Below are positions 1 through 42,178 of a DNA stretch of 64,000 nucleotides, in pieces. Location: NCBI GenBank assembly GCA_051294375.1, contig CM119267.1, forward strand, positions 23,318,905 to 23,382,904, in the 5' to 3' direction. The position numbers were made by a program, and so were the translations under genes. How positions within the stretch are numbered: the first letter of the stretch is position 1; the number at the start of each line of letters is the position of its first letter. This DNA comes from Paraspadella gotoi (lineage: Eukaryota > Animalia > Chaetognatha). The notes beneath the pieces are model-generated. The model was not told where the DNA came from and did no database searches. It saw only the letters and a list, made by a program, of their open reading frames with translations.

Positions 1-3000
1 TCGAGATCTGTCGCCATTACTGCTGAAGGAATGCCCCAATTTCTCGAAGACTTCTCCGCCGATGCTGTCTCTCCTCCTTTGAAGGATCAAGAAGAGATCC
101 TTGGCCTCTTGGAAATGACCATGTCCAAAATGGGCGACCGCATTTTCGCCCATTTGCCCTATATCCTCCGCGTGATTCTGCGACTCGGCGCCGGCGCAAA
201 GAAGCTATTGGATGAAGGGCGCGGAAAAGTCTCCTCCATTCATCCCAGCCATCTCTCCCGACTCAGGAACGTCAAGAACGCGTCCTTCAAACGGGTCGCT
301 CAGTTCTTCAAACTCTTCGACTTTTATCCCTTCACCTCCGCGGAAATCGACGCCATTTTCGAAATTTTTATTTGGCCTTATCTCGGGAAGCAAACGATCA
401 CCAAGGAAAGCTTGGCTTCGCCGACTCCCTGCTTAAAACTCCTGCACTCCTGGACGCTTTCCTCGAGATATTTCCCGTTGTTGACCAAGTGCCGAGACGG
501 AACCGCGCCCGTCGATGTCATTTTCGAGATGATGAATTCCCCGGATTTGAAGAAACCCGTCCTTCAATTGATCGTCGACTGCATTGATCGACTTCTCAAT
601 TCCTCGGATCATTCGACTGCTCCCAATCTTGAATCCACGGCGCCGGCTCCGTGCCACATCCTGGCCGAAGGATGTCGCATTTCGCCCAGCGAAGTCAACA
701 AGGATCAAACGATAGGATTACGAGTCCTGCTGCCTTTTGTCTCTGAAATTTTCAAGTATCTCCACGGAGTTATGCGGCGAATTTCTCGAAAGAAGGACGC
801 CTCGATGCCGGCGAGAGAGTTGACAATGCTGTCGACGATGAGTCCTTTCATTCGTGGCGACGCCGAAGCCGACACCATCATACGCGTTCTCCTGCCTTAC
901 CTCAGTCGATGGAAAGTGCGCGCAGCCGCACCGGTAATCACCGCAAAACAATCATGGACTCCCAAAGTGGATGCGTCCGACGATGATCTCGAAACCAGCC
1001 TTTTGCGGGTTTTGCATCACGCGTTTGCGCTCTCCAGTCGTCCCCGCAACTACGTCATTCCCATTCTTAAGCTTTTCGGTTCCGCTCCTTCATCCGATCG
1101 CAACAACAGATCAAGACATCTTTTGATTCAAATTCTCGGAGACGTTGCAGGCATTGATGCTCACATTGCGCCTCTGCATGCGCTCGCGATCGAAGTCAAT
1201 GCCATGAATCCCAAAGTTTTGGATGAACCCGATTATGGGCGGCGGTTGGTGGCATATGAAGGCTTTGGAAAGCGTCTGCTAAGTCTTTCTACGTCCGACG
1301 AGAACTTAGACAAAACGGCAGAAAAATTGCGCGACTTTGAAATACTCCTTATGCTGTATAACAGTTTGCATTTTCTGCGCCTTGCAGATGACATTGCGCT
1401 GAGGTCCAGCTCTTTGAACTGCCTCAAGAAAATTGTGAAATATGTTGGTTCTCAGGGAAATGAGACGATGTTTAAGAGAATTATCGTCAATCACTTGATG
1501 TTGGAGATTCGCAGGTCTTTGTCTGACCCTAAAGAGAGGATTCGCCACGAGTTCATTGGCCTTTTGGGTCAGGTCGTGCGATGCTGCGGAAAGTCGAGCT
1601 CCGAAGATGGGGAAACGTCTAAATCATTTGCCGTAGAGTTGAAGCGTCTCATAGATGATACCGATCCAGAAGTGGACTTTTTCGAAAATCTCATTCACAT
1701 CCAGATACATCGTCGTCCAAGAGCGTTGACGAGACTTACCAAGCAGTTAGAGGCGAAAGAGCTGGGCTACGAGTCCGTTCACTCTTACATCTTTCCCATT
1801 CTGACGGCAATCTTAAACGAGGATTCCTATTTGAAACATCAGAACATTCTCGTCGAGGAGTGCGTCAAAGCCCTGGTGGCCGCCTGCAAGTTTGCACCTT
1901 GGTCGCTTTATTACACCACGTTGATGACTTTTCTCAAGCGACTGACGATCCCAGGCACAAAGTCACGGATCGCTGTCAAAGTTGTGGTTCCGCTTTTGGA
2001 GGCCTTTCACTTTGACCTTTCGCTGTCTCGCGGGTTGAAAAGAGGAAAGGACGGGATGGAAAAAGGAAATAAAGGGAAGACGAAGGAGAAAGCCGTTGAA
2101 AAGGGAGTAGAAATAAATCTGGAAGAGAATGAGGAAATAAAAAGTGATGAAGATGAACCGATGGAAACTACAGAGGATAATGATGCTGAAGAAGATGAAG
2201 AGAACGAAAAGAAATCGTTTCAAACCTCTTGGGTAGATCCCTCCCGACCATTGTCGGAAGAAGACGCTACAGAAATTCACCAAACGATCGCAAAAATCGT
2301 CATTCCTCAATTGAATCGACAACTTATCCAAAAGAAAAAAGGAGAGGAGGTGCACAAGCTCAGCAAAGGCGACGTTTATGACGAGAATGAAGCATTGAGA
2401 GTTCCTCTTGCCATGGCCATGGTCAAGTTGCTCTCGAAACTGCCGGACGGAATGTTGCAGTCTCACGTGACCAATATCATCACCAAAGTGATTCAGTTTT
2501 TAAAGTCTTTTGATCAGGAAGTGAGGCAGGCTTCTCGCGAAACCCTAAAACACATCTTGGTTACTTTGGGACCCAAATACTTTTTCTACATCATCACCGA
2601 ACTCAAGGAGACTCTCCTTAAGGGATTCATGAAACACGTTCTCAATTTTACCGTCCACAAACTTCTCAAAACCTTGGCCGGGACGAACAGCCTTCGAAAA
2701 CTTTTGGAACCCAGCAACTTCGACGCCTGCGTCCCCGTCTTGTCGGAGATTTACTGCGACGAACTCTTCGGCGACGTCGGCGAGGAGAGGGAAGTGGAGG
2801 CCATCACCAATAAGATTCATGAAGCCAAAGGCGCCTGCAAAAGCTACGACTCTTATCTAATCCTCGGTAAAAACGTTTCGCCTTCCATGCTGACGACCCT
2901 GTTGATGCCGTTGAGAAACAAGCTCAACTCGTCGCAGAGCAAAGAAATCGTGGGCAAAATCTCCACTTGTTTGTCCATGATCACCAACGGGTTAGCGCAA

Positions 3001-6000
3001 AACAAATCGATCCCCGTCGAACTGCTGCTCACGATCGCCCACGGATTCAGCAAGGACGGATTCGAAGGGATCGTCACGTCCAAGAAGAAAGAGGTCGATG
3101 TCCCCGTTCCGTCGTTGCGACCGGAGAGCTGCCTTCTCTTACCCGAGAATCCGGGACGAGCGGGATTCAAGCCTCAGACGACCTCTGCTACCAACAAAAA
3201 CGTTCTCATCGATTTCGGTCTTCAACTCTTGCAAATGTGTCTCAAGCGGGGAAAGGTGAAAGCAAACAATGTGGAACACTTGGGAATGTTGGATCCTTTC
3301 GTATCCATTTTGTCCGAATGCCTTGATGCCAAGCATACCAAGACGGCCGCCACTGCCTTGCAGACATTATGCCTCATTTTGAAGTTTCCTAACCTGCCGT
3401 CGCTTATGACCCACTTTAAGGACATTGCAGACGCTGTCTTTGTGATCGTTCACCGCTATGGCACCGGGGGTTTAACGAAAAAGGGCGAGATCGCTGAGCT
3501 CGTTGCCGCAGCATACAAGGCTTTGAATATCGTTTTGCACAAGTCGTCGAAGCCACTCGGCGAGGACGAGATGGAGTATCGCCTGACGGAGGATCAATTG
3601 AAGGCGCTTGTGATGTATGTGGAGCACGATGTGGCCGGCGCCGATTCGGTCGCCGCCGACAGACAGCCGACGGCCTTTTCCATGCTGAAGGCACTGCTCG
3701 CGCGAAAGTTCAATTGCAAAGAGCTCATTCCGCTGATGGACAAGGTCTTCATTCTGGCCATCAAGTCGCCCTTGGAAGGAGTGAGGTCATCCTGCCGGCA
3801 ACTCTCCCTGCAATACTTAGTCCACTACCCGTTGGGCAAACGGATCAAGGGTCACTTGCAGTTCTTTTTGCGGCAGTTGGAATACGACGGATTCGAGGAT
3901 GGGAGAGCTTCGGCTTTGGAGATGGTGCAGGTAAAGATGACTCATACATATCGTTGACGTTTAGTCAATTAACGAGGGTAAATAAAAAGTGACAAGTTTA
4001 TTAATGAAGGAAAATGATTAAGGTGATGGCAAAGGTAAAGATGACAAAGGTTACGACAAAGGTGATGACAATATTAAACGGTTCAATAATTATTTGAAGA
4101 AGGGTTCTTTTTTGAGTTTGGATGTTAAGGTGATTGGTCATTCTAAGGTTGAAGTAAGGTCTGTGATTCGTCGGCATTCTGATTATTCGTGAAGAAGACG
4201 AGCAATCGCCTCACTAGGCCAACCAAGTCCGTTTATAGGTCCATTCCGTTTATGATATAGATATCAGGGTTTAATGTATTGTTCGCCTTAAGTATAAGAG
4301 GAGGATTTACACATCAGTTAACAATCGTCAACTTCTTTTCCCTATAGGCTCTTCTCCAAAATTTTCCGAAAAAATCTTTGGATACCTACGCCACCAACGT
4401 GATGTTCCTTCCCCTGGCGGCGCGACTCATCAATGAGGAGAGTCAAAAGGTACGCAAGATGGTCGGCATCGTTGTCAAGGGTCTATTGCAGAAAGTGGAC
4501 GTTGCTGATCGAGACACAATGTTCGATTCGGCGATGGTGTGGCTCCGTCAGGACTCTGGCGACGCTCCCACGCTCTTGGCTCAGCGCAGACTGGGTGCAC
4601 AGCTGATCGGCATCTTCGCCGAGGCCGAGGGCTCGGCCTTCGAACGAAGGCTGGACGATGTTCTTCCGGCATTGTCGCTGGCGACGCGACCGGATAAGTT
4701 TGAAGACGAGGAAAAGGAGGACGGAGACGACGGCGATGAGAACGATAACAATTTGGACGATAATGAAGAAGGCTGGGAAACTGTAGGCGCGCCTTCGCGT
4801 GAAGAAGGGAAGAAAACATCCTCGGCCAAGGACGGTCTTCTCTTCATGCTGCTCAACTCTTTTAAAAAGATCATCGTCGCCTGCGGTTCCAACGTTTGGC
4901 GGAGGAAAAAAGTGGATGATCTTTTGCAATTACTGGAATCGGCCGTAGAATTTCTCTACCATCCGCACTCGTGGATCAGGTAATTCGAGACTTGTGGGGA
5001 TGTGTCTTAAAAAAAAAAAAAAATGCTATTAAAAGTTTATCGTTAAAGAAAATAATTAATTAAATTACATAATTGATGATTAGGCTCGTCTCCTCGCAAA
5101 TTTTTGGCCTCTACTTTGCCTCCTTCAAGATTGAGACTTTAAAAGTGGACGCAACCGACGCCACCCCTTCCGGCGTCGCATCTTTTCTCACCCGCGATCC
5201 CGTTGGACAGGTTCGCCAACTCTGCGGCGCCTTTTGCCATCAAATGCAGAGCGAATTTCTCACAAAAGACTTAGCCACGCAAATCGTCAAGAACCTTTTG
5301 TTTATGGTCAAAGTTATTCGGTTCTTGCGGCGAGAAAGAGAGGATTTGATTTTGGGAAGCGGAGAGGACGATGAGAAAAAGATGGAGGAGGAGGAAGAGG
5401 AAGAAGAATCGGACGAGGGGCCGGGACCCGTTCTTTCACGGATGGTGATCGACTCGGAAACTGGCGAGGAGGCTTCCACGGCTCCTCCTCGACACAAACT
5501 CTCCCTAGACTTTGTCCTTCGCCGTGTCGTCTTCGAAGCTCTAAAGGAATCGACTCACCAAAGTCGAGGCACCCTCCGCCAGACCGCTGCGCTGCAGTTT
5601 TCCGCGGCGCTGGTGTCGGAGCTCGACGCCGACGAGACGCGGCACCACTTGCCGACCATGCTGCGTGTGCTTCGGCGCGCGACGAGTTCCGGTCGGCCTA
5701 GCGCGGACGACGCCGCTCCCGGTGCCGCCGATCGTGAGTCCCTCCGTCGTCTGGCCAAAGAGTTTTCCGACATCGTAGAGAAGCGCGCCGGTCAGGAAGC
5801 CTTCGCCTTTGCCATGGTGCGCGTGGAGAAAATGGCCGGAGAGAGGAAGGCGCAACGGCGTCAACAAGCGGCGCTGCTGAAAGTCGTCGATCCCGTGCGC
5901 GCGGCGACGAAGAAGATCAATAGGAAAAGAAAAGGGGGAGACGGAGCGAAGGGAAAGAAGAAAGGGAAGAAGACGAGGCTTAAGGATTTGGCCGTGATTG

Positions 6001-6005
6001 AGTGA
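1..6005 (+). CDS. UTP20: Small subunit processome component 20 (C-terminal part; gene starts upstream of the window)
   Basis: Frame is open from base 1. Inferred exons <1-3930, 4348-4979, 5084-6005 joined in frame by GT-AG introns. HEAT-like helical protein with recalled UTP20/DRIM motifs (EVDFFENLIHIQIHRR, KGFMKHVLNFTVH, ELFGDVGEEREV, YPLGK, HPHSWIR) and a basic KKK tail. Confidence 0.93.
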
Positions 6006-6278
6006 AGACTTGAAAACGTGACTTATACTCTAAGTGCTCTTTAAACTCTTTGTTGGCCCTGAAGCGAGGGAGAAACTGTTTTTTTTTTTAAGTTGAAGTG
6101 AGAGAATTCCCGCGCGTTGTGTCGTTTGCGCGGGATTTTCGTGTTTTTATTACGTAGTTAAATTATCAAATTCTTTTGTTTTTTTTAGTTCCTCCCCAGT
6201 TTATTTTCACTACAAAGGATAAACTTTAATCCGTGTCGGCCGCGGGTGGGAATTGTCTTTCCCTCCGCCGAATGCCCC

Positions 6279-7240
6279 ATGGCTCTTTTCTCCTCCGCGT
6301 CTCTTTTAAAACTCGCTCCATCCAAATTCGTTCCTTTCTTTTCCTCTCCTCGGCGACACGTTCACGTCCCCAAGCATATGTGGGGTCGACCCAACCCTAA
6401 GTATAAAAAGGTGAGATGGTTTTGTAATAGAGATAACTGTAAAATCCCAAATGACAAAGTTTTTAAATTTTATTTTCATATTGTGGTTCGTATAAATCGA
6501 GCAACGCGTTAATTTCCTGCGCAGGGAGAAAAACACGGTCGTTATTGGCGTTCCCGTCAAGGATTGCCCAACGTCCTCGACGAGACGGGCCCGCTGGCCG
6601 AACTGCCCGATTGGACCTTCGCCGACGGAAGACCGGGGCCTCTGTCCAGGAAGCAGACCGCAAAGTGAATAGTTGGTTGAGCCTGTGAAAGGAAAACGAT
6701 TTTAGACAAAATCGTGAAGAGACAGTAATTATTGTTGTTAGTGACAGAACCGTTCAATATAAGCAGTCCCTGAGCTTCGGATCAGGCTGTAACACCGTGT
6801 TACAGGCGGGTTAAGCGCCCCGTCCCTCTTAACTGCTAGGCGACCTCCGGGCTAGAACCCTGGACCTTTGGGTTGGGAGGCGAATGACTTGACTCCGGCA
6901 CCAATGGCCGTAATCGGTTATTTTATTGTTGGACATAAACTCTCGTCGTAATCCGTCGATCTTATTTGCCTTACCCCGCTCATCATTATTTTCCAAAACA
7001 ACTCGTTTTTACAAAAACAGGGAGATTGCCGATTCTTTATCTTTGTTGCGAAAAATGATCCAATTTGTTGTCTTCAGAGTCTTGGAACAGCAACGCCTCC
7101 TCCGCGACGTCGTGGCCGGACTCGAGTTCATCAAATTCGCTCAGTCGCGCCCTGACCGTCACGCCGAGGAAGAGGAGTCGTCGCGTCGTGCCATTTTAGA
7201 CTCAAAGCTGCGTCCCAAGGGAAACCTCGTCCTGGAATAA
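6279..7240 (+). CDS. MRPL52: Mitochondrial ribosomal protein L52 (mL52)
   Basis: Exons 6279-6410, 6525-6664, 7078-7240. Exon 2 is missing from the ORF track and reads WRSRQGLP..GPLAELPDWTFADGRPGP, the mL52 signature. C-terminal LRPKG and a presequence-like N-terminus. Confidence 0.9.
6726..6912 (-). mobile_element. Putative tRNA-derived SINE, copy 1 (in MRPL52 intron 2)
   Basis: Minus strand has a tRNA-like head (ctcccaac loop, B-box-like ggttctagccc), then ggacggggcgcttaa...ttacagc..gatcc..gggac, and an A-rich tail. A diverged copy lies at ~52410-52550. Confidence 0.55.
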
Positions 7241-7270
7241 ACTATTACTTCGTCCAACAATATTGCAACT

Positions 7271-7756
7271 ATGTCCGAATCCGAACGGGTCGATGCCCGC
7301 CTTAACAAGATCGCAAATTACGAGGCTTTTCTCAACGAGAGGCTCAAGCGCGACCTCCTTCGCGTCCACCAACGACGCGACGAGGTCTGGGAGGAGCAAG
7401 CCGAATACCTCAAGCTCAAGACGGTCGTCGAACGCGTCAAGTCTTCCCCGAGCGTCGCCCGCGACGGACTCAAGTCCCGCGTCGATCTCGGCTGCAACTT
7501 TTATGCGGAGGCTCGCGTGGACGACCCTTCGAGGATCTTCGTCGACGTCGGGCTCGGGTATCACGTGGAACTGACCCTCGACGAGGCGACTAAGGTCATC
7601 GACGAGAGAGTGGAAGCGCTCAACTCCCGCGCCGAAGCTTTAACCAAGAGCGCCAATCAGATCAAAGCGCAGATTAGGATCGTCGTGGAGGGAATCCGAG
7701 AGTTGTCCAACATTTCTCGAGAAGATGCGGAAAAGTACAGGGACGTTTGGGCCTGA
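7271..7756 (+). CDS. UXT: UXT, prefoldin alpha-like protein
   Basis: Intronless 161 aa ORF with YEAFLNERLKRDL, VDLGCNFYAEARV, IFVDVGLGYHVELTLDEA and VVEGIREL, typical of UXT. Confidence 0.92.
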   Translation: MSESERVDARLNKIANYEAFLNERLKRDLLRVHQRRDEVWEEQAEYLKLKTVVERVKSSPSVARDGLKSRVDLGCNFYAEARVDDPSRIFVDVGLGYHVELTLDEATKVIDERVEALNSRAEALTKSANQIKAQIRIVVEGIRELSNISREDAEKYRDVWA

Positions 7757-8037
7757 GATAAAGAAAGAGATCTCTCTGCTCGTGTGAAAGTGTTTTACAT
7801 GTTTTCATGTCTTTAAATATATTGATGCCATTTTTGTTTATTATAAGTTGATATTCGTATATAAAAGAACAAAGGAGTTGTAAAGAATAGCAATTAATCA
7901 AAGGTAAAGTTAAAAAGGATCCCAACTCATCATCGCCTTCTTTAAAACTCCGGTTTGTCGTTTTTCGATTTGGTTTGTTTTTGTTTCTCTTCCGCGCAAA
8001 AAGAATACCAAAGACAAAAAACCCTCGGAAGACCGAA

Positions 8038-10884
8038 ATGACGCAATCGTCTCCCGCCCCGCGCGTTCTCGTCGCCTCCAGCCTCGCGGAAAAACTCTCT
8101 ATCACTTCCTTAGACAACTTTGAGCGGGGCCTCGACGGTCCGCGACCGGTCCACGCTTTGATCGGCGTTCCCGGCGACGCTGAGTCCGGCGCCCCCATCC
8201 TCGTGCTAAACGCTTGTCGACTTCATGATCCCGACATGGGCTTCTGCGAAGTAGAACCTTGTAAGGATTCATTTAAAATAATTATAATATTTTTTCCTTC
8301 CACCAAGTAAAATAATTTTCCTCCACTTTCCTCTTTTTGTTCTAATAGGCGTCAATCTCATTCTCGCCGACATCGATTCTCATCTTTCCGGCGGAGTCTC
8401 GGTTGTCGGTCTCCTTCACTACAACGGGTCTATAGGAGGGTATGTTTGTCTAAGATAAGCATATAACTAGGTACCAAGAGGTTCAGTGTAAACAGAAGAA
8501 TTCTCGCTTACTATGTAAACTGTCCTTAATATAAGTATATATGAAAATAGACACATTTAGATTTAATACTGCAATATGTAAATGAGATTGAGAGATTCAA
8601 TTTCATTTAAGATCATATTAAATAATCATCTCTTACAGCTCTGCAACAATGAACAAAAATTGAAAATAATATGTATAATATGTACAATAAGTATTCCCCG
8701 ATCTAATACTTAAGGGAGTGGTCTTTTCATACAATTGAAACATTCTTTGAAATATTTTCCACTTCATTGATAGGGAAGCCAGGTACTCTGGGAGTTAATA
8801 AACGAGACTGTGAAAGAGTCTTGATTGAAAGCTTGCAGGGACCTGCTATGTCATTATCTTGTAAGAGTGATGGAGGCCTTAAACCACCAAAGCCTGTCCA
8901 AAGTCAGGGGCAAGATAGCTTATTTATTAAATGATTGGATAATTTTTATATTGGTTGTACCAATTTCATGTAATATCTAAATAATTTATCCTTTGCTCAC
9001 CCAGCAACATTCCCGAAGACGTCCTCCACATCTTCGACCCCTACGATTCGAAGATGCCGCGAGACCGCGACTATGTACAGCTGTCGCTGGCGCCGTCTCA
9101 GTCTGACGCCGTCGGTTACGAAATCGCAGAATGTCACGTCTTTCGAATCGGAGACGAGGATCAGGAGAAAACGACTTTTTCCGTCGTCGACGATCCGTTG
9201 GACGATTTGCTTCTCTTTCGCGTCCGCGCTTCTTTCCCGCTCAACTTGGAGATTCCCGAAGATGACGAGCAAATAATCGGCGGGGCGATCGAGCGACTTT
9301 TGACGCGACTCTCCATGAGATCCCCCGCCTTTGCCCTCGAGAGCAGCGCCGCCGATTTAATCCTCGCCCGCGGCGTCGTCTTCAACGCCGAGGGAGAAGA
9401 TCTCCGCGACGCCGGTGACGTGCGCGACTTCGCCGAAGCGGCGATGGCGCAAAGCGACGTCGACGAAGGATTCGCCATCGTCGCCTCCGCCGAAGATGAA
9501 AGAAAGAAGAGGAAGAAGCGAGCTAAGAAATCCGCGACGATTAAAGGCCCCAAATCTGCCATCTGCTTCAGATTCTTCGAACGCATCACCGGCGACGAGG
9601 CCCTCGAGCCTTTCCCATCCCACAGCCCCGTAATTCGCCTTACGCCCAAAGAATTCGTCTCTGTCAAGACTATCCTTTCGTTGGAAGCGCTGGCCGTCGC
9701 GCGTTCGGGAGATTCCCGCGAGGCGCTCCTCGATCGCTTCCTCCAAGGCCTCGAGCGGCAGATCGTGAGCTGCGGAGAGTGGCTCAAGTCGAGACTCTAC
9801 GCCGTTGTGAAAGCGTCGGCGCCTCGTCGCTTTGAATCATTTCACGCTCTGCCTGAAACTGCCGGACATTTCGTCTCCATTGTCGTCCCCATTGGCGCAG
9901 AGGACAATGACGATGACATGGAAGAAGAAGATAAGAACATCCGGCGCCGATTAGCTTATTATTTTTTCTTGCCGCCGGATCGACCGCTCTTTCGAGAAGG
10001 AAACGCGTACGTCTTCGCCGAAGAAGCCGCGAGCTCGCCTTATTTGAGAAACGTTCACTTGGGCCTGAAGCGGCCGTTACCCAATGCGGCGGAGGCGGCC
10101 GTGGCGACGGTTCAGGGGAACTACGTTTATCATCATTACTTGCAGGTAGAGAGGAAAGAGGTTTCACTTTTTCTCTATTGGTGGCGTTGTTGTATTTATC
10201 AATTCGTAACATCACAATGACTGTTATCAGGTACTTTTTGTCGCCCGACTTATTTTTTTGTAATATTACTTCAGGATCGCATGTCCGACGATGGATGGGG
10301 TTGCGCCTATCGATCTCTTCAGACGATCGTTTCGTGGTTCCGTCTTCAAGGTTACACCTCCCGTGCCACGCCCACCCACACGGAAATTCAACAGACGCTC
10401 GTCGATCTCGACGACAAGCCTCCGTCGTTCGTCGGTTCGAAGAAGTGGATCGGTTCAATGGAGGTTTGTCGCTAATTCATATTTTTGTAATTGTTTACAT
10501 TTAGTAAATCTAAATTGGATTTGAAATTATCTCCAGGTAAGCTACTGTCTTGACCATCTCGCCGGCGTCACCTCCCGCATCCTTAGCGTGAGCTCCGGTG
10601 CCGCTTTGGCGGACAAGGCGCGCGAGCTGCTCGACCACTTTCGATCGGAAGGCACGCCGGTGATGATCGGTGGCGGCGTCCTGGCGCACACGATCCTCGG
10701 CGTCGCCTTCGACGACGTCGGCGGCGAAGTCAAGTTTCTCGTTCTCGATCCACACTACACCGGCGCCGAAGACCTCAAGATCATCCAGGACAAAGGCTGG
10801 TGCGGTTGGAAGCCATCCTCGTTTTGGGACAAGAACGCCTTCTACAATCTGTGTTTGCCGCAACGACCGAGGGGAATCTATTGA
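8038..10884 (+). CDS. UFSP2: UFM1-specific protease 2 (peptidase C78)
   Basis: Exons 8038-8260, 8349-8439, 9005-10145, 10275-10463, 10537-10884 stay in frame. Motifs [11 protein letters not shown], catalytic [38 protein letters not shown] and YNLCLPQRP. Confidence 0.95.
8835..8975 (+). repeat. ~140 bp dispersed repeat, copy 1 (UFSP2 intron 2)
   Basis: gcagggacctgctatgtcattatctt...ggttgtaccaatttcat is a near reverse complement of ~31932-32068. Confidence 0.8.
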
Positions 10885-11807: not shown

Positions 11808-11851
<44 letters not shown>

Positions 11852-11879
11852 TCATACATGCATTTGTTTGTTTTATTTA

Positions 11880-12690: not shown

Positions 12691-12704
12691 TAAGATTTTT
12701 TAAA

Positions 12705-21033: not shown

Positions 21034-21064
<31 letters not shown>

Positions 21065-31818: not shown

Positions 31819-31931
31819 GTCTAAATTACTTGATAGAGTTCATTTATTTACCAACTGATCGTCGGACATTCGCCGCTGTTTAAATTATCATTCCGATTTT
31901 CAACCTCATTTGTTATCATGTTATGTTGTAA

Positions 31932-32068
31932 TTATGAAATTGGTACAACCAATATATAAATTATCCATTCATTTAATAAATAAGCTATCTTGCCCCTGAC
32001 TTTGGACAGGCTTTGGTGGTTTAAGGCCTCCATCTCTCTAATAAGATAATGACATAGCAGGTCCCTGC
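31932..32068 (-). repeat. ~140 bp dispersed repeat, copy 2
   Basis: Reverse complement of ~8835-8975 with a few substitutions. Confidence 0.8.
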
Positions 32069-32380
32069 TATGATACCTGCCCAACACCCCTTTTTTATTG
32101 TTCTGTGATATTGTTGTCAATTCTGACGGATACCGCAATACTATGTGAAATCACAATTTTGCTTTTACATTTATGCCCCTCTACCTCGCATTATATTGAA
32201 AAAACTATTTTTTAATTGTTCTGTGATACTGATCTATTTTGATGGATACCACACTCACGGTTTTGATTTTAATTTTATGCCTCTCTACCTCGTATTACTA
32301 TGTTTTAAAAGGTAAAATTTACTTTTTTATTTTATATTTTACTTAGCTTATTTTTTGAAACGCGTTAAAAATCAAACAAA

Positions 32381-32796
32381 ATGTCCGCTCACGGATTGGA
32401 CAAAATTCCAGACTCTTTGGGTTTCATGGTTTTGAATGAAGACGGCGGCATTCTCTCCTCAGGAGGTGATCTTGACGGGCAGGACAGAATTGCGGGTAAG
32501 CTCGTTGTCTTTATATATAATCAATTAATAAGTTAAACAAAACTCGCCTTAACTTTCTCCCCCGCTTTTTTTTTTCTCTAGGCATCATGACTTCCATGCT
32601 CCGGTGTCTCTCCCGCCTTCGCAAAGATGACGGTTCGCCCCAATCCTTCCAAAGAGTCACGCTCGTCCTCGACGCCTTCTTCTACGGAGTCACCGTCAGC
32701 AACCAAAAGATCTTCGTCGTCAAACGATCGAAGAAGCCGGCCGTTCCGGCCAAGCGCGATGACTTCGAGGACGACGACGAATTCCGGCGAAATTAA
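32381..32796 (+). CDS. LAMTOR4: Ragulator complex subunit LAMTOR4
   Basis: Exon 1 (32381-32495, absent from the ORF track) reads MSAHGLDKIPDSLGFMVLNEDGGILSSGGDL. Exon 2 (32582-32796) has FQRVTLV..VTVSNQKIFVVKR. Confidence 0.88.
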
Positions 32797-33236
32797 ACTT
32801 TGAAGGAGATCAAACTGTTTCTTCTTTGTTTGGTTCGTCTTTGCACGAGCATATTTTCTCGGTTTGAAGGTTGTAGATCGGCAGGGCATATTTGCGTTTT
32901 GATTTTTTGTTTTGTAAATACACCAATGAGGGTTGCCTATTGCCCAATATTATATTATAAGGCTTTACCCGAATTAAATGGTTGTTAGTTTCTAAAATTA
33001 GTGGGGGGCTCCCTTAAATCGCAGCTAAGATGAGGTGATTTATCCCACCCTCTCTCCTCTTTCTCTTCATAACATCCGCGTCGTTCTCCCCGACTGGTTG
33101 CTGGTCAACCTCCGTTGATTCGCTATTTTTTTCCAGATGTGAAAATAATATTCGGAATTGTGATTTTCTTCTTTCTTTTCTTCAACGGAAGGATAAAAGA
33201 AATAAAGAAAAAAAGTCAGCGTCACGCGATTCTTTT

Positions 33237-33668
33237 ATGTCGATCGCGGATCCGTCGAGTCGGAAACATGACGTCGACGAACGCGACGATCGGCGCGACG
33301 ATCGCCGCACCGTCGTCTACGGGCTCATAGATTTAGGGAAGAAGTCGGACCGGGAGATCGAGGTCTTGCTTCAACATTTTAACTTCCGTGTTCACTTATT
33401 ATATTTTAAGATGAAGATTTTCATTGTTCCTTTCTTTTCCATTTCCAAGGAGCTTTTGAAGATGGCGCAATCGCTAAAGCTCCACCGGATGTTCCGAACC
33501 TGTCACGAAATTTTAACGCAGCGGCGGTTGACGCATCCGACTTTGTCGTCGCCGCCGCCGCCGCCGCCGACGACGATGGCGCCGCAGTCAAAAAGGCGCT
33601 CCGTGCTCTTCGCCGGAGAGCGGAGTTCCGGATCGGGCACGCTCAAAGTCGGCGATATCGGTTTTTAA
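33237..33668 (+). CDS. Small uncharacterised protein with a segment resembling the C-terminal helices of a BTB/POZ domain
   Basis: Likely in-frame 87 bp GT-AG intron at 33363-33449. The spliced product contains VVYGLIDL..EIEELLKMAQSLKLHRMFRTCHEIL. GC-rich, coding-like exons. Confidence 0.5.
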   Translation: MSIADPSSRKHDVDERDDRRDDRRTVVYGLIDLGKKSDREIEVLLQHFNFRVHLLYFKMKIFIVPFFSISKELLKMAQSLKLHRMFRTCHEILTQRRLTHPTLSSPPPPPPTTMAPQSKRRSVLFAGERSSGSGTLKVGDIGF

Positions 33669-34346
33669 GGCTCCTACGATTCGATTAACCGCCCGTCGAG
33701 TTTTGTTTTTTTGTTCCTGTGATGCTTACATATCAATTATTTATACAATATTTCGAACATATTACATATAGTCGCTATATAAAATCAAAATGTTATATAT
33801 TTCCCACGTGCTTCATCTTTAATCGTCTCTTGTTATTTTCGATTTGAGAATGATCTTGTGGTACAAGTTGTACAATACTATGTATGATTTTGCGTCCGTT
33901 TGAACAACGGAGTCATCAAAGTTCGAATCTCGCCTTTTTGTATAACATTCTCGAATGTTTACATAGTTCTATAATTTTGATCTCATGACATATCAATATA
34001 TATGACTACATAGATCGAGCTCTCGTTAAGTTTAAAATCTAGCTTTTCCGTTGATTTTATATTTTTGAACTTGGCATGTTGGACATTTCATAATATTAAA
34101 GTAGATATTAGTTAAATTTGTTGAAACATTTATTAGTAAAAAAAGTGAACAAAAAAGCGTCGAGATTCACATTGACACAAATAATGTAACCTCCCGTTAG
34201 ATTTTAAATCCTAATTAACTTAATCGTTTGTTCTACTAACTCGTTGATATTTATTTTCTCATAGTGGTAAAAATAACGCCTGGTACTATAGCCATTAGCC
34301 GTCTGGAACTAAAAAAAAAATAAAAACTACACTATAGATTATAGAA

Positions 34347-35199
34347 ATGGCTAAGCGCGGAATCACATACGTTAAAGGAGAAGAGCCAGCGTTTTTGAAA
34401 CGATTCAAAGAGAAGGTGCGCAACTTTAACCTACTATGTCATATATTCATTAAATGCGTTAACATTCCAGGTTTACACATTATTTTCTTTTCTCTATCAT
34501 AGGCGGGCTTCGTGGAGGGTCCAGGGGTAAACGAGAAATTCAAGCGAGACGAGGCCAAATCCTCTGGTCCTGATGAGAATGAGGAAATCAAGGACGACGA
34601 ACAACCCATGGTGTGTGTTGGGCTCATTTGGGAATGTAAAAGGGGAGTGGAAACTGGAAGTAGTAGTACGTGTAATGGATCCTTTCTAAATTTGAACATT
34701 TGTTTCCAGGTGGTCCGCCTTAAGGACGAGCACCTGACCCAGGCCGAAGCCGAAAAGGAGTGGCAGCGAGCCAAGACGGAGGGAGAGCTTCGTCTGAGGG
34801 ACGAAGAGGGCGTCGGGCGAGGGCCTCCGGTCGACGCCGTCGGAAAGATCCGGTTTAGAAAACCGAAGGTGAGTTAGAAAAAAGATAAGGGTAGAAAAGG
34901 AGGTAAAATTTGTGGGAAAAAAAAGGGGGAAAAAAAAATGAGTTGAAGGCCGGATTTTTCGCGCTAAATTTAACTAGAATTTTACCGATGTTCTTTTTTT
35001 TTCCTTTGCCTTTCCGCAGGAAAAAACGGAGAACGACAAAGACGAGAAAAAACAAAAGACAGACGAGACGGAAAAGCGTGAGAAACGAGACAAAACCGTT
35101 AAAAAGGAGAGAAGAGAAAAGAAAAGAGACGTGAAAGCTGTGAAAGATTCCAAACTCTTGTCGTTTGGCGACGAGGATGAAGAAGAGGAGGAAACGTGA
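34347..35199 (+). CDS. KIAA1143: KIAA1143 homologue (DUF4604)
   Basis: Exons 34347-34415, 34503-34610, 34710-34868, 35020-35199. Reads ITYVKGEEPAFLKRFKEKAGFVEGP, DEQPMVVRL, KIRFRKP and LLSFGDEDEE. Confidence 0.88.
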
Positions 35200-35377
35200 C
35201 CATCGTTGTTTATTTTGTTAGTTTTTATTGGTTTTTAATTGTTTTATATTTTATTTTCTCTTCGGTATCACGCCTTGCCATTTCCCTTGTCCAATGTCCA
35301 TTTGGAGTTTTATTTTACTTCAATAAAAAAAAACAACTAAAACCAAAAACAACCAACGAATCCTATCGAATCTTGAG

Positions 35378-36992
35378 ATGACGAGCCAGACAATGAACGA
35401 GTACAGTGAGGGAGATCACGTGATTGTTACAGCTAGTCATGATCGCTGTCTCGTCGGCCGAATATTTCGACTCTACACTCGACGGCGCCGTCGAGAAGCT
35501 GAGATGCGTTGGTACTGGTTCGGTTCATGGTTTCCCGCCGTAACCTGGTTACATCCGGCCGAGATAATCCGGGACATGTCGAACAGATTAGATCCGGCGG
35601 TGGACCTGTCAAAAATATCCGGAAAGTGCACGGTTCTTTTCTTGCATCCGCACGAGAGCGCTGACGGGAATAGCGTCAGGTTGGAAGTTTTTTTTGTTCA
35701 GACGTTTGATCTCACGTTGACGAGTTTAACCAATTTCGATAAAGGGGTTTAATAGGCATATTAAATTGGAATTTCTTTGAAAGCGCGGGAAAATATATTT
35801 TTAGGAATTAATAACCTTCTCCCGCTTATTATCTTTTCTTGTCCCTCACCCGCTACCGGTTAACCAAGTCATCTGACTCAAATGGCCTCGCAACGCCTCT
35901 ACCTACCCGAACGCGCCGTCATTCGTCCCGTCTATATTTGCCGCTTCGAGTTTTCCGCCCAAGAGCAGTTTCGTCCGGTCATTCGTCCGTCGTTATACGA
36001 AAAAGCCGACGAACATGGCCCGTCACCGCCGTCGTCACGGTCGAGTCGGCATTCGTCAAATCCTTCGCCGATACGTTCGACCGACAGACTCTCCTCGAAG
36101 CGGCTCTCCCTCGCCGCCATCGCCGCCCGCTCTCAAGCGCCCCGTCGACCGGTCGAGCGATCTTCTTCCTTCGACAGCGACGAGGGGGATTCTTCCTCGT
36201 CCGCGGAGGACGAGATTCGCCCCACGTCGGCAAAGTATTCTTATCCAATCGCCGGAGAAAACGGTTACTACGAAGAAAGTGACGTTCAGAGCGACAAAGA
36301 AAAGGTCGAAAAATCCGGCAGGACGAGCGCCATTCCTACCATTCTCTGCGGAAAGGTGGTTTGGTGGGAAAGTTTGTTTTTTACCATTTTCGCCGAGGGT
36401 TTTGAGAATCACTCAATGGGGGAAACGACACAGACATGAGGGAACTGAATGATAAAAATATTCATTAACATTTTTATTGGTTCCTCCATAAAATCCCAAT
36501 TGCGTTTTTTTATTCCCAAAAAACTTACTTAATCTCAGACACGAGCGATCCAAAACGCGAATTGAGACGTTGATTAAAAACGTTTTCTCTCATCCCTACG
36601 GACGAAAAAAAAACTTGGCAATCCATCAGCGTCTTCTAACCGTCCCATTTTTTTTTCACACCTTCCACTTTCCTCAAATCCACCACCAATCCACCATCCC
36701 AATTGGCTAGATCGACGAAAAGCGAGACTTTCGAAATCCGTATTCCGATCCGGAATCCGTGGACCCGCGGGAGGTGGACAGCGACGCGGACAAATGCGAC
36801 CGGAAGTCGCGGATCCTCAAGGGTAAGTTACTCTCGCAGGAGAACCGGTCCAGACTGAGTCAGTTCGAGAAGGAAAGACCCGAGCGAGTCATGCGGGCGA
36901 GAAAGGAAAGGGATGAGATGGAATATCGACTCAAGATGAAGAGGAGGGAAGCGGACGAGGTGAGGAAGGGGGGGAGGTGGGGGGAAAGGTGA
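35378..36992 (+). CDS. BAH-domain protein with a Ser/Arg-rich linker and charged tail (3' end uncertain)
   Basis: Exons 35378-35679, 35869-36355, 36711-36959(+) join in frame. GDHVIV..VGRIFRLY..MRWYW..EII..ISGKCTVL..YICRFEF is a BAH-like pattern. A donor at 36960 has no confident acceptor. Confidence 0.6.
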
Positions 36993-37406
36993 GGATTTAA
37001 GAAACGAGGATGTGAAGAGGAAGTTGGGAAGGAAAAGCTTTTTATTGTAGAAATCAGATTAGTGGAGTATTTGGCGGTAAAATCGATCGTATTTAAATAT
37101 TTGTTTAGTAAATTGAAAAAGGAAAAAGATCTCTTGTTTTAACCAAGAAATTAGGATTATTTTGATAATCATAATCGTATTTTTTTATCGTCGCAATCGC
37201 TTAGCGTTTGCGACGATATTGTAACGCTTTTGCGCATAAGTGGCGTCGTCGTCGTCGTCGTCAACGGCGTTCCAAATTATAGATCGCCTTTTTTATGATT
37301 AAATTTGGGTGTATGAAGCTGAAAATTTATAAACAGCTTCTCATCATCGATGTGCTTAAAATTGAGTCTGGACAGTAGAAACATTTGAATCCAACAAAGT
37401 TTTAAT

Positions 37407-37520
37407 TAGATAACCAGTCTGGGTGTCATTCTGTTCATTTTTCCAAGCTCTTTTTAACTAAAAAAGTTTCATTTAAAAAAAACTTTTTCGCCCGAGCCAG
37501 GGGTGTTGAAGAGACAAAAT
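37407..37520 (+). mobile_element. Possible end of a DNA transposon related to the 18612-20924 element
   Basis: gtgtcattctgttc...ttcgcccgagccaggggtgttgaag parallels the subterminal sequence at 18659-18750. No partner TIR found. Confidence 0.3.
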
Positions 37521-39068
37521 ATGGAAATTCACAATTTTTTAGTATTTTTTAGCTTTTTCCAGTTAATTTTTTTAATATAATAATCTTTAATCAAGTTAAT
37601 TACTTCTGATAATGATTTTAATTTATCCTATTTAACTGTTTTTAAAACATACATTAAAAAAATATTAGTTTTTAGCTTAAGCCAAGGGTGTTGAAGAGCT
37701 AAAATGTCTAAATATTTTTTTAAAATATTTATAAATTATAATTTATTTTTTTTTAAAGATAACTTATATTAATCATGGTAATGAAAATATTTGATATCTT
37801 TAAATGCTTTTAGGCGATTTACCACAGCTTTAATTTAATCAATTAATTTAATAATGTTTTTTAAAACTGAAAACCCCAAAAACTTCTATGATTCAAAGCA
37901 AATAATTTTAATTTTTAATGTAATTGTTACAAGATAAAATTATTTAAATAATATTCGGATATTATTATAAAAAAAAGTTTGTTTACTTTATACTATATAA
38001 ATATAATTTTATTTAACAAATAATTTAAAAAATGATATCTGCATATAAATTTTGTACGGATAAGAGTAATAGTTTGGTTTAACTCTATATACAAATATTT
38101 TGTTATTAAATAAACAATTATTTTTTAATATACAATAATTTTTTAAAAAATAATTAATTGCTTTTTACTTTTTTCATTTAATAATTGTTTAACAAAGAAG
38201 TTTTGTTTTTCTCACTAAATCTAAAAACACAAGAAAAAGAAAGTTATGATTTATAAAAGATTCATTAAAAATAACAACCTCTTATAATCCGATTCATATA
38301 TACTATTTTACTATATAATAATATTGTTAATTAATTTACTTGATTAGCAAATTATTAATAAGTTTAAATTATAAACATTGTGTTGAACTTGTTTATTGCA
38401 TTTTTAGATTTCGAAAAAAATTTTTATGTTAACAAAAAAATTTAATGAATTTGTTAATAATTTGATTTTTATCTTTTTCTCTCTTTTCTCCTGCTGCTTC
38501 TGCTGCTGCCTTTTGATTTCTTTCTTTTTTCTGACTGCCTCTGCTGCTGCCGCTGCTGATTCGTCCGAAAACGATTTGGCTTTCTCTCTCTCTCTCTCTC
38601 TGTTTATTTGACAATGAAATTTTTTTTTTCTTTTTTTTTTTTTCTCAGGGGCTGCGTCTGCTGATCAGTTTATTTGACAATGAACTCTTTCCTATTCTAT
38701 TTTCTCTTTTCTATTCTTTCTTTCCTTTCTATTCTTTCTTTTCTTTCTATTCTTTCTTTTCTTTCTTTCTTTTCTTTTCTTTCTATTCTTTATTTATATT
38801 TATTCTTTTCTTCTTTTTCTTTCTGTTTATAAATTAATTTTCTTTTCTCAAATTTGATTTTTTTTAGTATCAAAATTTGTCGTCAATCCATATTTTCCTT
38901 ATGCGATTGCGACGATCCTTATGCTTTTAAAAATTTTTTTTATAATTTTCCCCGGTCCATCTCGATTATTTGGCAATCCTCTTTCAATCCAAAAAAAAAA
39001 AAAAAAAGAAGAGAAACTATTCTCCCGAAGATGTCAGCCCTTCGTCACAACCTCAAGCCAAGAAAGCA

Positions 39069-39941
39069 ATGAACCGTTCCCGCCCTCACAAGGAATTCCT
39101 GCTCGAAGTCTACGAGGATCCCCGCGAGGAGCGATCCAATTGGGTCTTTCGAGTTTCCACCCGTCGTCGCGTCTCTTCTACGTCGTCCAAGTCGTCGTCG
39201 TCATCGTCACGCAGGGAAAGTCGTCATTATTCGTCTTCTTCGTCGGTCCAATCGCCGCGCTCGTCTTTGTCGTCCGACTCGTATACCGTTGACAAACGCG
39301 CGTGTCGCACTCGCGGCGCTCGGTCCGCCTACGTCCCTCGGTTTAGTTGCCGCAACTATTTCCTCTCGCGGGGCAGAACTTCGTTGCCCGCGAGGAAATT
39401 CAGGGGTCGGGGAAGGGGAGATAGGTGGGGAGGAGGTGGAGATAGTGGAGGTAGAGATGGTTGTGGTGGAGGTAGAGATAGAGATAGGGATGGAAGAGGA
39501 AGAGATGACGACGGAAGAAGAGACAGAGAGGGAGAGTCGTGGCGTGGAGGAGATCGGTGGCGCGGAGGACATGGCGGAGATAGAAATTGGGAAAATCATC
39601 GGATGAACAGGGATAATGGGGATTGGTGGGGGCGGGGAAACGGTGGCTACGATTACTGGCAAAATGGCGAAGAAAACTGGGGCAACGATGGCGGAGACGA
39701 CTGGGGCGGGGGCGCCGGCTGGACGAGTCGAGGTAACGATCGTGGTGGTCGCGGAAGGGGTCGCGGAGATTGGCGCGGTAAAAGTGGACGCGGGTTCCCC
39801 CCTTGGTTTCGTGGGCGAGGGTGGCGGCGTGGACCGACCAAGAGTCGACTCTATAAATGTGCTGACGGTTCTTACAAGATACTCAACGCGCAAAATCGTG
39901 TCTACAATTGGAAGGGCGAGTCGCTGAATCAAGAGATGTAA
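39069..39941 (+). CDS. SR- and RG/W-rich low-complexity protein, paralogue 1
   Basis: Intronless ORF, first ATG at 39069. Shares LEVYEDP..FRV and RGARS..SCR motifs with the next gene. Confidence 0.65.
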   Translation: MNRSRPHKEFLLEVYEDPREERSNWVFRVSTRRRVSSTSSKSSSSSSRRESRHYSSSSSVQSPRSSLSSDSYTVDKRACRTRGARSAYVPRFSCRNYFLSRGRTSLPARKFRGRGRGDRWGGGGDSGGRDGCGGGRDRDRDGRGRDDDGRRDREGESWRGGDRWRGGHGGDRNWENHRMNRDNGDWWGRGNGGYDYWQNGEENWGNDGGDDWGGGAGWTSRGNDRGGRGRGRGDWRGKSGRGFPPWFRGRGWRRGPTKSRLYKCADGSYKILNAQNRVYNWKGESLNQEM

Positions 39942-40267
39942 CGCGCGAATCTCCTCGTGATCTTGATCCTTGAATATTTATTGAAAACTTTTCACCCGGA
40001 AACGAAGGACTAACGTTGAACAAATTAATCAATTTCATAGTCCTAGTGATTCCTTTTTACATTTATATTATTCATACTTCCTGTTTGTATGATGAGCTGA
40101 GATAGTACAAATTATATTAGGTATAAGATGATGACTTAATTATAAAAGCTTTTTACAGTTAGCGCAAGTAAAGACATTGTAGTACGTACTTCCGGGAACA
40201 AAGCTCGATCATGTGAAAGGCTTATTTCAAGTTTTGTTTCCTTTAAATATTTAAAGATTTGAGAATA

Positions 40268-42178
40268 ATGGCGACACGCGGCTCATCTCCCTTCACCTCT
40301 TTCCTGAGTCGACATCCCAAGCAAAAGTCGCTGGCCAGAAATTCTCCGGCCCCTCGCCGCCCCTCTCGAGACAAATCATCTTCTTCGTCGCCCCGTCCGG
40401 GGACTTTTCAAAAAAGAAAGCGTCGGCGGAGTCTTCGAGACGGCGGCCCCAAATCTACCCAGCGTTCTGAAAGTTCCTCCGGCTCGTCCAAACGATCCCA
40501 CTGTTCCGTCAAGTTCCCCGGTCGAGTCAAGTCCCCGTCGACTCGCGCGCGCCGTTCGTCGTCAACCGATTCGTCGTCTTCCATCCTACGCCGAGCCTCA
40601 ATTTGCATCCCTAACCGGGTGTTGCTGACTTTGGAGGTCTACGACGATCCTTGGGACGCGTCTAAAAGGTGCGACTCATTTGATGGTTAGGAGAATGGAA
40701 TTTAAAAACAACTTCTACATCAATTATTTTCTAGGAGCGACCTCATTTTTCGTGTGACTCGCCGATCCGGTCGCTCGCTGTCTCGACAACGTTCGTCGTC
40801 TCGAGGACGATCGTCTTCTCGGCGACGATCGTCTCCTCCGCTGCGATCGTCTTCTAAGCGACGATCGTCTCCTCCGCTGCGATCGTCTTCTAAGCGACGA
40901 TCGTCTCCTCCGCTGCGATCGTCTTCTAAGCGACGATCGTCTCCTCCGCTGCGATCGTCTTCTAAGCGACGATCGTCTCCTCCGCTGCGATCGTCTTCTA
41001 AGCGACGATCGTCTCCTCCGCTGCGATCGTCTTCTAAGCGACGATCGTCTCCTCCGCCACGATCGTTTTCTAAGCAACAATCATCTCCTCCGCCGCGATC
41101 GTCTTCTCGGCGGCAATCGTCTCCTCAGCCGCGATCGTCTCCTCATCCGGGATCGTCCCCTCAGCCGCGATCGTCTTCTCAGCGGCGATCGTCTTCTAAG
41201 CGGCGAAACGAATCTCGTCGGCGATCGAGATCTACGCGTTTGCGATCGTCGTCTTCTTCTTCATCTTCGTCGTCGTCGTCGTCGTCGTCCCGACCAACGC
41301 CACCATGTCATTATTCTCATGAGAAGCGTCGGCCAGATCCCCGGATGTCGATGATGCCGCGGTTCGATAGAAGAGGAGGCGTTCCTCGGCGCGGCGCCCG
41401 CTCGATGTTTCCCGCACCGAGTTGCAGAGGGCGCGGCGGATATCGTGGATGGAGTGGAGACGGCGGGAAGTACAGAGGAAACTTTAGAGGCGGTTGGCAT
41501 GGCGAGGATCGTGGATGGCGTGGTGGAAAGGGAGATGGTTTTGGGGGTGGATGGCATGGGGGAAATGGAAACGATTTTAAAGGCGGGCGGTACAGTGAAA
41601 ACTATAATTGTCGGGGCGGAAGGCACGGTGGAAAAGACGATTATCAGGGCGAATGGCACGGTGGAAACGGAGAAGCTTATCGGGGCGAATATCACCGCGG
41701 GTTCGGCGACAGGCCCCGCAGGGGATTCGGGCGCGGATTTCGAAGGGGCGGAAGATGGAAGAACATGCCCTCGTCCCCATGTAGGACTTTCGTCTTGGAT
41801 GTTTACGATGATCCGCGGTCAACAGAGAACGCCTACGTCTTCCGCGTGCTGAAGGAAACGGAGAGGCCCCCGTCGCCCGAGAGGCCCGCCGTCTCCGTCG
41901 CCCGAGCGCCTTCGGCCGCGTCGGCTTGCCCGAAGGCATCGAAAAGTCGACCAGCAGGGCGGACGAGAGGGGCGATGACGGCTGCGCCTAGACTCAAGTC
42001 AACCGTCCAAACGACGAATAGCATTAAACACAAAATTCGCCGATTTGATTTGGTATCCAATTGGTTGGAAGGCGGGGGGAGTGGAGGTGGCGGGGGGAGT
42101 GGCGGCGGAAGAGGCGGCGACGGCGCCGCTGACGAAAACTGTGGGGATAGCGAAACGAAAAAGGACGGAGATGTTTAA
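40268..42178 (+). CDS. SR- and RGG-rich low-complexity protein, paralogue 2
   Basis: Exons 40268-40668 and 40735-42178. Splicing rebuilds the shared motif [20 protein letters not shown], and a second copy [18 protein letters not shown] follows. Confidence 0.7.
40820..41060 (+). repeat. 36 bp coding tandem repeat ([12 protein letters not shown])
   Basis: About six perfect copies of gcgacgatcgtctcctccgctgcgatcgtcttctaa, followed by degenerate units. Confidence 0.95.

Follow-up and report, generated by a model that had tools for sequence, protein, structure and literature searches.

In a 64,000-nucleotide stretch of the genome of the chaetognath Paraspadella gotoi (NCBI GenBank assembly GCA_051294375.1, contig CM119267.1, positions 23,318,905 to 23,382,904 of the forward strand; hereafter the window), we identified 17 mostly housekeeping genes arranged head-to-tail, all on the + strand, in positions 1-42178. 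Exon models built over the whole window confirm that this same-strand array is real. Its organization is best described, with a probability of roughly 0.58, as some three to five chained operons, the precursors of which are probably cut by polyadenylation and spliced-leader (SL) trans-splicing, with two gene pairs separated by very small spacers left bicistronic. This reading is based on the observed gene order, strand and gaps, the removal of introns in RNA, contigs across 7 of 11 spacers, and contigs shared by relatives of C15orf61 and of its neighbor, a retinol dehydrogenase (RDH)-like gene. In its same-strand, short-gap layout and its RNA continuity, the array works like an SL-resolved operon cluster.

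From left to right, the array comprises UTP20, MRPL52, an alpha-type prefoldin, UFSP2, EEF1E1/AIMP3, C15orf61, the RDH-like gene, a zinc-finger gene, gamma-tubulin complex component 5 (GCP5), a VTI1-type v-SNARE, a protein arginine methyltransferase (PRMT), gene 12 (g12), LAMTOR4, gene 14 (g14), a DUF4604 gene, a BAH-domain gene, and gene 17. Open frames with GT-AG introns were recovered in 16 of the 17 models, and one intron is GC-AG. Coding DNA makes up 61% of the array and introns are sparse: its 25.8 kb of coding DNA is interrupted by 27 of them, or 1.05 per kb, with a median length of 128 bp, and one UTP20 exon exceeds 3.9 kb. Stop-to-ATG gaps range from 30 to 1196 bp (median 304 bp over 16 spacers), the last spacer (39942-40267) being 326 bp. 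A first-pass annotation of this DNA had counted about 18 genes; we count 17, as the joints seen in RNA fuse the open reading frames (ORFs) at 35378, 35869, 36711, and 39009 into the single BAH gene. Its placement of every supported gene on the + strand is borne out by our models of 1-42178, and all 15 of the gaps it quoted (273, 30, 281, 213, 1145, 45, 425, 436, 499, 283, 179, 562, 440, 678, and 178 bp) were reproduced exactly. The gap of 1145 bp stands as arithmetic, and becomes 1196 bp with the C15orf61 start at 12756, which we favor over 12705 because the relatives of this protein are 151 amino acids (aa) long. This spacer, the longest of the array, lies between EEF1E1 and C15orf61 (11560-12755, no strand assigned) and is of low complexity; three N runs (12.3-12.7 kb) and an exact duplicate of 211 bp fall within it, and its size is therefore not reliable.

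Comparison with Pfam and PDB sequences gave solid family support for 13 genes and weak support for the DUF4604 gene, and found no family for g12 and gene 17 (in Pfam) or for g14 (among 1.84 billion representatives). No opposite-strand gene was found among 28 further ORFs selected from both strands, none of which had a Pfam match better than E 0.014. By chance, 0.15 runs of 17 one-strand genes would be expected per 20,000 randomly oriented genes. The one-strand orientation is thus unusual and suggestive without being decisive by itself, and the case for the array rests on the short gaps and on RNA. The run may continue beyond base 1, where UTP20 is cut. Downstream, we found no gene-like ORF in the microsatellite-rich positions 42179-64000, in which exact or inverted local duplicates beside N gaps (e.g. 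55840-57125, equal to 59131-60416) are probably assembly artefacts. No tRNA genes were found in the window.

The RNA mapping that the first-pass annotation had proposed could be carried out with the contigs of one public run, which, among three listed, is the one that matches this DNA (share 0.81) and is not recorded as RNA. Its contigs were aligned to 12700-29150 and 30130-40780, covering 11 of the 16 spacers and 19 introns. Introns are skipped at their splice ends in 17 of these 19 cases; one further removal, in the BAH gene, follows from record length, and one, in LAMTOR4, was not seen. Depth bins over unique introns are as low as they should be if the introns had no cover at all, and the depth of one bin within a 2 kb intron is 0. 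As introns are removed and intron bins are empty, the run represents spliced RNA, and genomic DNA does not explain the bridging of spacers. The contigs moreover keep the genomic gene order with 0-3 differences. The same observations bear on the idea of an artefact, in which DNA or unspliced RNA in the library would have produced the bridging or misassembly of the genome the array. Such an origin could draw on the RNA label of the run being a guess, on the capacity of assemblers to drop low-cover intron arms, on the N gaps and exact duplicates of the scaffold, and on the order of genes 1-5 relative to genes 6-17, which rests solely on the scaffold across N gaps. Against the 17 skipped introns, the empty intron bins, and the matching gene order, we consider it highly improbable.

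Seven of the 11 aligned spacers lie inside single spliced contigs, one is abutted by contigs on both sides, and three are unbridged, giving blocks of 4, 3, and 3 genes. In the first (block A, 12700-25877, +), one 8202 nt contig runs through C15orf61, RDH, the zinc-finger gene, GCP5, and their three spacers; its exons and spacers sum to 8198 aligned letters, with 7 introns removed, and it has just 4 letters upstream of 12700. In the second (block B, 25941-29150, +), one contig of 3127 nt covers VTI1 and PRMT, extends into g12, and takes in two spacers. In the last (block D, 34291-40780, +), two contigs with a 30 nt overlap run through genes 15-17 and two spacers, and their lengths of 1567 and 263 are reproduced by exon arithmetic. 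The LAMTOR4 contig ends at 33088 and the g14 contig starts at 33090, one base apart, and the excess depth at this break would fit about 78-fold cover across it. For the left part of the array, the share of the run in 1-8400 lies between the 0.85 expected with all spacers and the 0.77 expected with coding parts only, and is therefore uninformative on the left-hand spacers. The longest stretch seen in one contig is 4 genes, well within the known range of operons.

The three unbridged spacers differ in character. Between GCP5 and VTI1, the unbridged stretch (25878-25940, +) has 63 nt, ends in AG, and is a candidate trans-splice site; its limits were derived from a depth bin and record length. Between g12 and LAMTOR4, the break coincides with a high-copy repeat. 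Between g14 and the DUF4604 gene, about 340 nt (33950-34290, +) form a candidate internal promoter or processed spacer, and within this stretch TACTAAC stands about 25 nt before the AG at 34263-34264. These uncovered parts (25878-25940, LAMTOR4 exon 1, and 33950-34290) are holes between contigs and are not evidence of promoters.

The first-pass annotation had proposed either a polycistronic unit of 16 or more genes or a chain of operons. A chain is the best fit to contigs that bridge 7 of 11 spacers; with three aligned spacers left unbridged, these contigs do not show a single unit of that size. Under a single operon of all 17 or more genes with one upstream promoter, the unbridged spacers would be those with the fastest cleavage and trans-splicing. 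No opposite-strand gene among the selected ORFs interrupts the run, the 63 nt break between GCP5 and VTI1 is too small for a promoter plus outron unless these overlap the upstream 3' end, and the repeat between g12 and LAMTOR4 would break any contig. A 158 kb chaetognath bacterial artificial chromosome (BAC) likewise carries all 15 of its non-transposon genes with a listed strand on + (PMC2481426 Table S5). On the other side, promoters could fit into the roughly 340 nt uncovered before the DUF4604 gene and into the spacer of about 1.2 kb upstream of C15orf61, the RNA alignment covers 11 of 16 spacers, and in Oikopleura long reads broke up a 9-gene operon that had been predicted from distance (CORAL preprint). 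We regard a single operon as unlikely. The fuller form of this proposal is comparably doubtful; in it, the whole 42 kb or more would be one RNA polymerase II (Pol II) unit of at least 17 genes, exceeding every animal operon in the literature searched and belonging to a directional cluster of the trypanosome kind in an animal phylum, with leader trans-splicing at spacers that have an acceptor and conserved two-gene messages read by leaky scanning at those that lack one.

The two smallest spacers suggest a second mode of expression. The 30 nt between MRPL52 and prefoldin (7241-7270, +) contain no AG and no ATG and form a candidate bicistronic junction, judged from the bases themselves. The 45 nt between C15orf61 and RDH (13212-13256, +) contain no ATG, have a best acceptor score of -3.0, and are bridged by a spliced contig. 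Neither spacer has a usable acceptor; trans-splicing could not easily resolve them and is therefore unlikely to be the whole mechanism. MRPL52 has C at -3 of its start and a single internal ATG, its stop codon lying within an AATAAA; C15orf61 also has C at -3, and 2 internal ATGs, each with T at -3. These are two of the three starts among 16 with a pyrimidine at this position, and the two genes have the lowest internal ATG densities of the 16 (2.3 and 4.4 per kb). All three internal ATGs of the two genes have a pyrimidine at -3, and the downstream starts of prefoldin and RDH have a purine (A or G). Both pairs thus combine a weak first start, ATG depletion, and a stronger second start, as noted post hoc in two cases. 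In green-algal bicistrons, weak first starts and ATG depletion are marks of leaky scanning (PMC11291117).

Moreover, the adjacency of C15orf61 and RDH appears in related sequences, in which C15orf61 is 70-74%, RDH 51-59%, and VTI1 72% identical. For 8 of 18 close C15orf61 relatives, the size of the contig equals that of one of 19 close RDH relatives from a matching source (1720, 1736, 1763, 1876, 1924, 2014, 2384, and 4756 nt), and these are 8 of the 10 contigs long enough for both ORFs. Jittered sizes gave a mean of 0.21 matches and a maximum of 4 (200,000 trials), and the sizes of 17 VTI1 contigs match neither set; 7 members of a more distant, decapod-like cluster were excluded from the count. 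Given these exact matches, the pair is adjacent across several lineages. The 4756 nt contig of one relative (proteins P0231 and P0110) carries both genes and has room for the next gene too.

We looked for the leader itself at several levels. The common untemplated 5' leader for which the first-pass annotation had suggested a search did not appear in the 12 loose contig ends examined out of 108, all of them at repeats or low complexity. Short leader tips can be clipped by assemblers. No SL family matched positions 1-48000 of the window, the start motif of the chaetognath leader matched once in the window (2.2 expected), and the N-terminal extensions of 30 relative proteins, compared by eye with the published forms, contained no translated chaetognath leader. 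The contig of block B starts directly behind an AG, at 25941, and arithmetic from the depth of bin 25876-26424 and the record length leaves 5 further letters unaligned. Chaetognath leader forms 1 and 2 have their last five letters in common, ending in A (PMC2481426 Table 3), and the 5 letters, known from that arithmetic, would fit such an end as a candidate. With a scoring built from the window's own 27 introns, 6 of the 16 spacers reach at least 6, against 4.4 in shuffles (p 0.25), and three score 9.2-9.9; the highest-ranking sites stand at 6200, 14577 or 14664, 17748, 27071, 33137, and 34265. Poly(A) hexamers were detected in 10 of the 16 spacers and follow no evident pattern.

These results can be set against two further alternatives. 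In the first, each gene has its own promoter within a compact housekeeping domain, and contigs are fused where a 3' untranslated region (UTR) or read-through overlaps the next 5' end. Contigs cannot tell such overlap from co-transcription, no leader was seen in the ends examined and acceptors are not enriched, and same-strand UTR overlap is known in Drosophila (PMC4528330). The depths of neighboring contigs also differ, from 58 to 400, though depth is a poor measure of expression here. However, this arrangement would require overlaps of at least 31 nt at 7 of 11 tandem junctions, spacers of 30 and 45 nt are too small for a 3' UTR plus a promoter, C15orf61 and RDH remain neighbors in relatives whose RDH is 57-59% identical, and the sharing of one strand by 17 genes is left unexplained. 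Separate promoters throughout are accordingly improbable in our view. In the second, trans-splicing is absent: the final messages are the long, spliced RNAs with several ORFs, and their translation relies on leaky scanning, reinitiation, or internal entry. The retention of spacers in fully spliced contigs, the lack of acceptor enrichment, and the leaky-scanning signature at two junctions speak for such messages. Yet scanning to later genes is implausible past long upstream ORFs rich in ATGs (UFSP2, GCP5, and PRMT, with 18 to 21 and, in the last, 15 internal ATGs) and through spacers that hold up to 12 of them; several spacers carry good acceptors (scores 9.2-9.9), and messages in Drosophila are at most tetracistronic (PMC4528330). 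This alternative is more doubtful still.

We hypothesize, returning to a chain of about three to five operons, that Pol II would read several genes into each precursor, from which introns are removed, and that 3' end formation and leader trans-splicing would resolve most junctions, at a pace slow enough to leave spliced multi-gene RNA visible. Promoters might lie upstream of C15orf61 (11.6-12.7 kb), of LAMTOR4 (31.9-32.3 kb), and of the DUF4604 gene (33.95-34.3 kb), in the spacer in each case, and a leader might be added, for example, at 25941. Ribosomes could reach prefoldin and RDH by leaky scanning, passing over the weak start of MRPL52 in one pair and that of C15orf61 in the other. This scheme takes one contig to stand for one molecule.

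Several observations weigh against this chain of operons. The RNA comes from a single run whose contigs are without strand, level, or molecule ends, so that a two-gene contig does not show a single transcript, and the breaks between contigs could be processing sites rather than promoters. Beyond the leader missing from the ends examined, the 16 spacers have no significant excess of acceptor-like sites relative to shuffles (p 0.15 and p 0.10 in two scorings), and the bridged spacer between the DUF4604 and BAH genes has an acceptor score of just 1.6. At the candidate leader site of 25941, the 5 unaligned letters are equally explicable as an unlisted insertion, and an upstream ATG stands behind the site at 25963; the contig at 34291 begins without loose letters. 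The leaky-scanning pattern was recognized post hoc, in two genes, and depletion of out-of-frame ATGs extends to UFSP2, GCP5, PRMT, and the zinc-finger gene. Removal or bypass would also be required for two strong-context ATGs, at 12705 and 12719. Lastly, the contigs shared by relatives may be DNA, as C15orf61 and RDH lack introns here.

Among the genes of the left part, all on the + strand, UTP20 (1-6005; exons 1-3930, 4348-4979, and 5084-6005) has its 5' end outside the window and gave an open joined frame with matches to Pfam UTP20 (E 1.6e-68), UTP20_N, and UTP20_C. MRPL52 (6279-7240, 3 exons) matches its Pfam family (E 1e-11) and PDB mL52. Its intron 2 holds a structured element (6765-6880) with an inverted copy, 71% identical, at 52435-52549. 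We considered the element as an RNase P RNA and rejected this, as there is no Rfam match and the second copy points to a repeat; on the minus strand it resembles, by eye, what we take to be a tRNA-derived short interspersed nuclear element. The prefoldin gene (7271-7756, one exon) matches Pfam Prefoldin (E 1.6e-20) and PDB prefoldin alpha subunits, encodes a single Met, and is presumably UXT. UFSP2 (8038-10884, 5 exons) has an open frame of 663 aa with Pfam UfSP2_N and Peptidase_C78. A 135 bp element in its intron 2 (8835-8969) recurs inverted and 96% identical at 31934-32068 and is very deep in the RNA run. This element has a weak match to the twister-P5 ribozyme (25.8 bits, E 0.24, below the gathering score), and by eye we take it to be possibly the end of a Penelope-type retroelement. 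EEF1E1/AIMP3 (11098-11559, one exon) matches PDB EEF1E1 (E 4e-14).

The right part, likewise entirely on the + strand, opens with C15orf61 (DUF4528; 12756-13211, one exon), identified by Pfam (E 2.9e-60) and named homologues. In the ESM Atlas, its matches all scored under 0.9. In a quick single-gene tree of 62 rows, none of them a named chaetognath and without rows under 95 aa and most partial matches, the window and 9 relatives form a long-stemmed clade (support 100), which is placed weakly with crustaceans and a myriapod (SH-like approximate likelihood-ratio test, SH-aLRT, 89). RDH (13257-14246, one exon) is a short-chain dehydrogenase/reductase with Pfam adh_short and RDH12-14-like named matches. 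Gene 8 (14672-17411, 3 exons) encodes C2H2 zinc fingers and an extended PHD by Pfam, both introns being spliced in RNA, and is presumably RAI1/TCF20-like. GCP5 (17848-25583, 6 exons) was identified by Pfam GCP and PDB GCP5 (E 1e-49), with all five introns spliced. One 3.8 kb intron of GCP5 carries nested repeats. In intron 2, nested inverted-repeat elements span 18552-21985, with outer arms at 18552-18776 facing 20761-20932 and 21925-21985, and inner arms at 20924-21092 facing 21768-21934 (98% identical). An inner minus-strand ORF of 282 aa in the same intron had no Pfam match.

The v-SNARE (26083-26827, 2 exons; Pfam V-SNARE; intron spliced in RNA), which we take to be VTI1B, has a bivalve as its best named match. 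The position of its single intron differs from those of the introns of at least one locus in a metagenome scan, the distant, intron-rich L001, and two ENA relatives begin exactly at the intron point, which suggests a shared intron. PRMT (27111-28511, 3 exons) matches Pfam PRMT_C (E 2e-26), and its introns are spliced. In g12 (28691-31818), both ends are covered by RNA contigs and no Pfam match was found; frameshifts within an E/K/A-rich tandem repeat of 900 bp are probably assembly errors. This gene is unlike its neighbors in its lower GC content at third codon positions and in the scarcity of CpG over its 5' two thirds; it may have joined the array as a young gene or as one of mobile origin.

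LAMTOR4 (32381-32796, 2 exons) matches PDB LAMTOR4 (E 1e-5 and 0.011); its exon 1, the removal of its intron, and a link to g12 were not seen in the RNA contigs of the one run. The g14 gene (33237-33668) encodes 114 aa with an intron spliced in RNA, and had 0 matches among the 1.84 billion representatives with a query that included the 87 nt intron read through. The DUF4604 gene (34347-35199, 4 exons, all three introns spliced), presumably KIAA1143, has weak Pfam matches at the two ends of the profile (E 0.0064 and 0.13). The BAH gene (35378-39941; exons 35378-35679, 35869-36355, 36711-36959, and 39009-39941) has an open frame of 656 aa with a BAH match under the Pfam cut-off (E 1e-6) and an RS/RG-rich tail; two of its joints were seen in RNA and the third follows from record length. 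The 2049 bp intron at this third joint (36960-39008) would lack a pyrimidine tract and close with 17 purines (A or G) in a row. Gene 17 (40268-42178, 2 exons, intron spliced), the last of the array, has an RS/RGG-rich open frame of 614 aa with no Pfam match. A short motif (hydrophobic residues, VY, an acidic pair, P, then FRV) occurs once in gene 16 and twice in gene 17, adjoining RS- and RG-rich tracts in every copy. To judge by these sequences, gene 17 may be a tandem partial duplicate.

More generally, a 17-gene, 42 kb run with RNA over most tested spacers suggests either that longer units are broken up by cut-offs on distance or that operons chain into one-directional domains, and the array offers a case for how far Pol II passes many 3' ends without terminating. 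It possibly forms a single unit, which would be longer than any animal operon in the literature searched. No animal operon above 13 genes was found in that literature, which mostly excluded subscription papers and did not cover the operon table of P. gotoi. If confirmed, the two pairs lacking an acceptor would be conserved leaky-scanning bicistrons within an operon, a combination that we did not find in the literature searched.

In the portions of the published accounts consulted, the longest operon of P. gotoi has 9 genes at a 250 bp cut-off (PMC12460157), operons reach 13 genes and 14 kb in Oikopleura dioica (CORAL preprint 10.64898/2025.12.04.692336), 9 genes in Macrostomum lignano and 8 in C. 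elegans (PMC8629364), and 7 genes in Ciona (PMC7986045). Elsewhere, operons are defined by a 500 bp cut-off (PMC11067885). Drosophila has 159 dicistronic pairs and messages up to tetracistronic (PMC4528330). The BAC table of Spadella cephaloptera has 24 rows, listing SwissProt-matched genes only, and its 4 minus rows are transposons (PMC2481426 Table S5).

The gene content of the array matches known animal operons (PMC12460157), and the array resembles the SL operons described in chaetognaths in its same-strand housekeeping genes, short gaps, and long one-strand runs (PMC12460157, PMC2481426). It differs from them in holding 17 genes in one run, and in that no leader was seen in the 12 of 108 loose ends examined here. 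The ratio of observed to expected CpG is 1.15-1.57 in genes and 0.21-0.90 in several repeat remnants; that CpG is kept in genes and lower in repeats is as expected from transposon-only methylation, like that described in P. gotoi (PMC12460157). The array is like the operons of Oikopleura and Ciona in that unrelated genes share a unit and in its multi-gene RNA, which in those animals was sequenced in unprocessed form (CORAL preprint, PMC7986045). Their units, however, measure 14-17 kb, with neighboring genes about 30 bp apart or without a gap, whereas the array extends over 42 kb, its median stop-to-ATG gap being 304 bp and its introns canonical. With the SL2 operons of C. elegans and the operons of Macrostomum, the array shares co-oriented conserved genes and RNA-seq assembly that crosses spacers and splits at repeats (PMC8629364). 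In those species, about 100 bp separate the 3' end from the acceptor (PMC8629364), whereas two spacers here have no usable acceptor. The two tiny-spacer pairs are like leaky-scanning bicistrons in their short first ORF with a weak start and few ATGs, their tiny ATG-free spacer, and their second start with a purine at -3 (PMC11291117, PMC4528330). Unlike the algal and Drosophila bicistrons, these pairs, known here from sequence and, for C15orf61-RDH, also from a contig, sit inside a far longer operon-like array.

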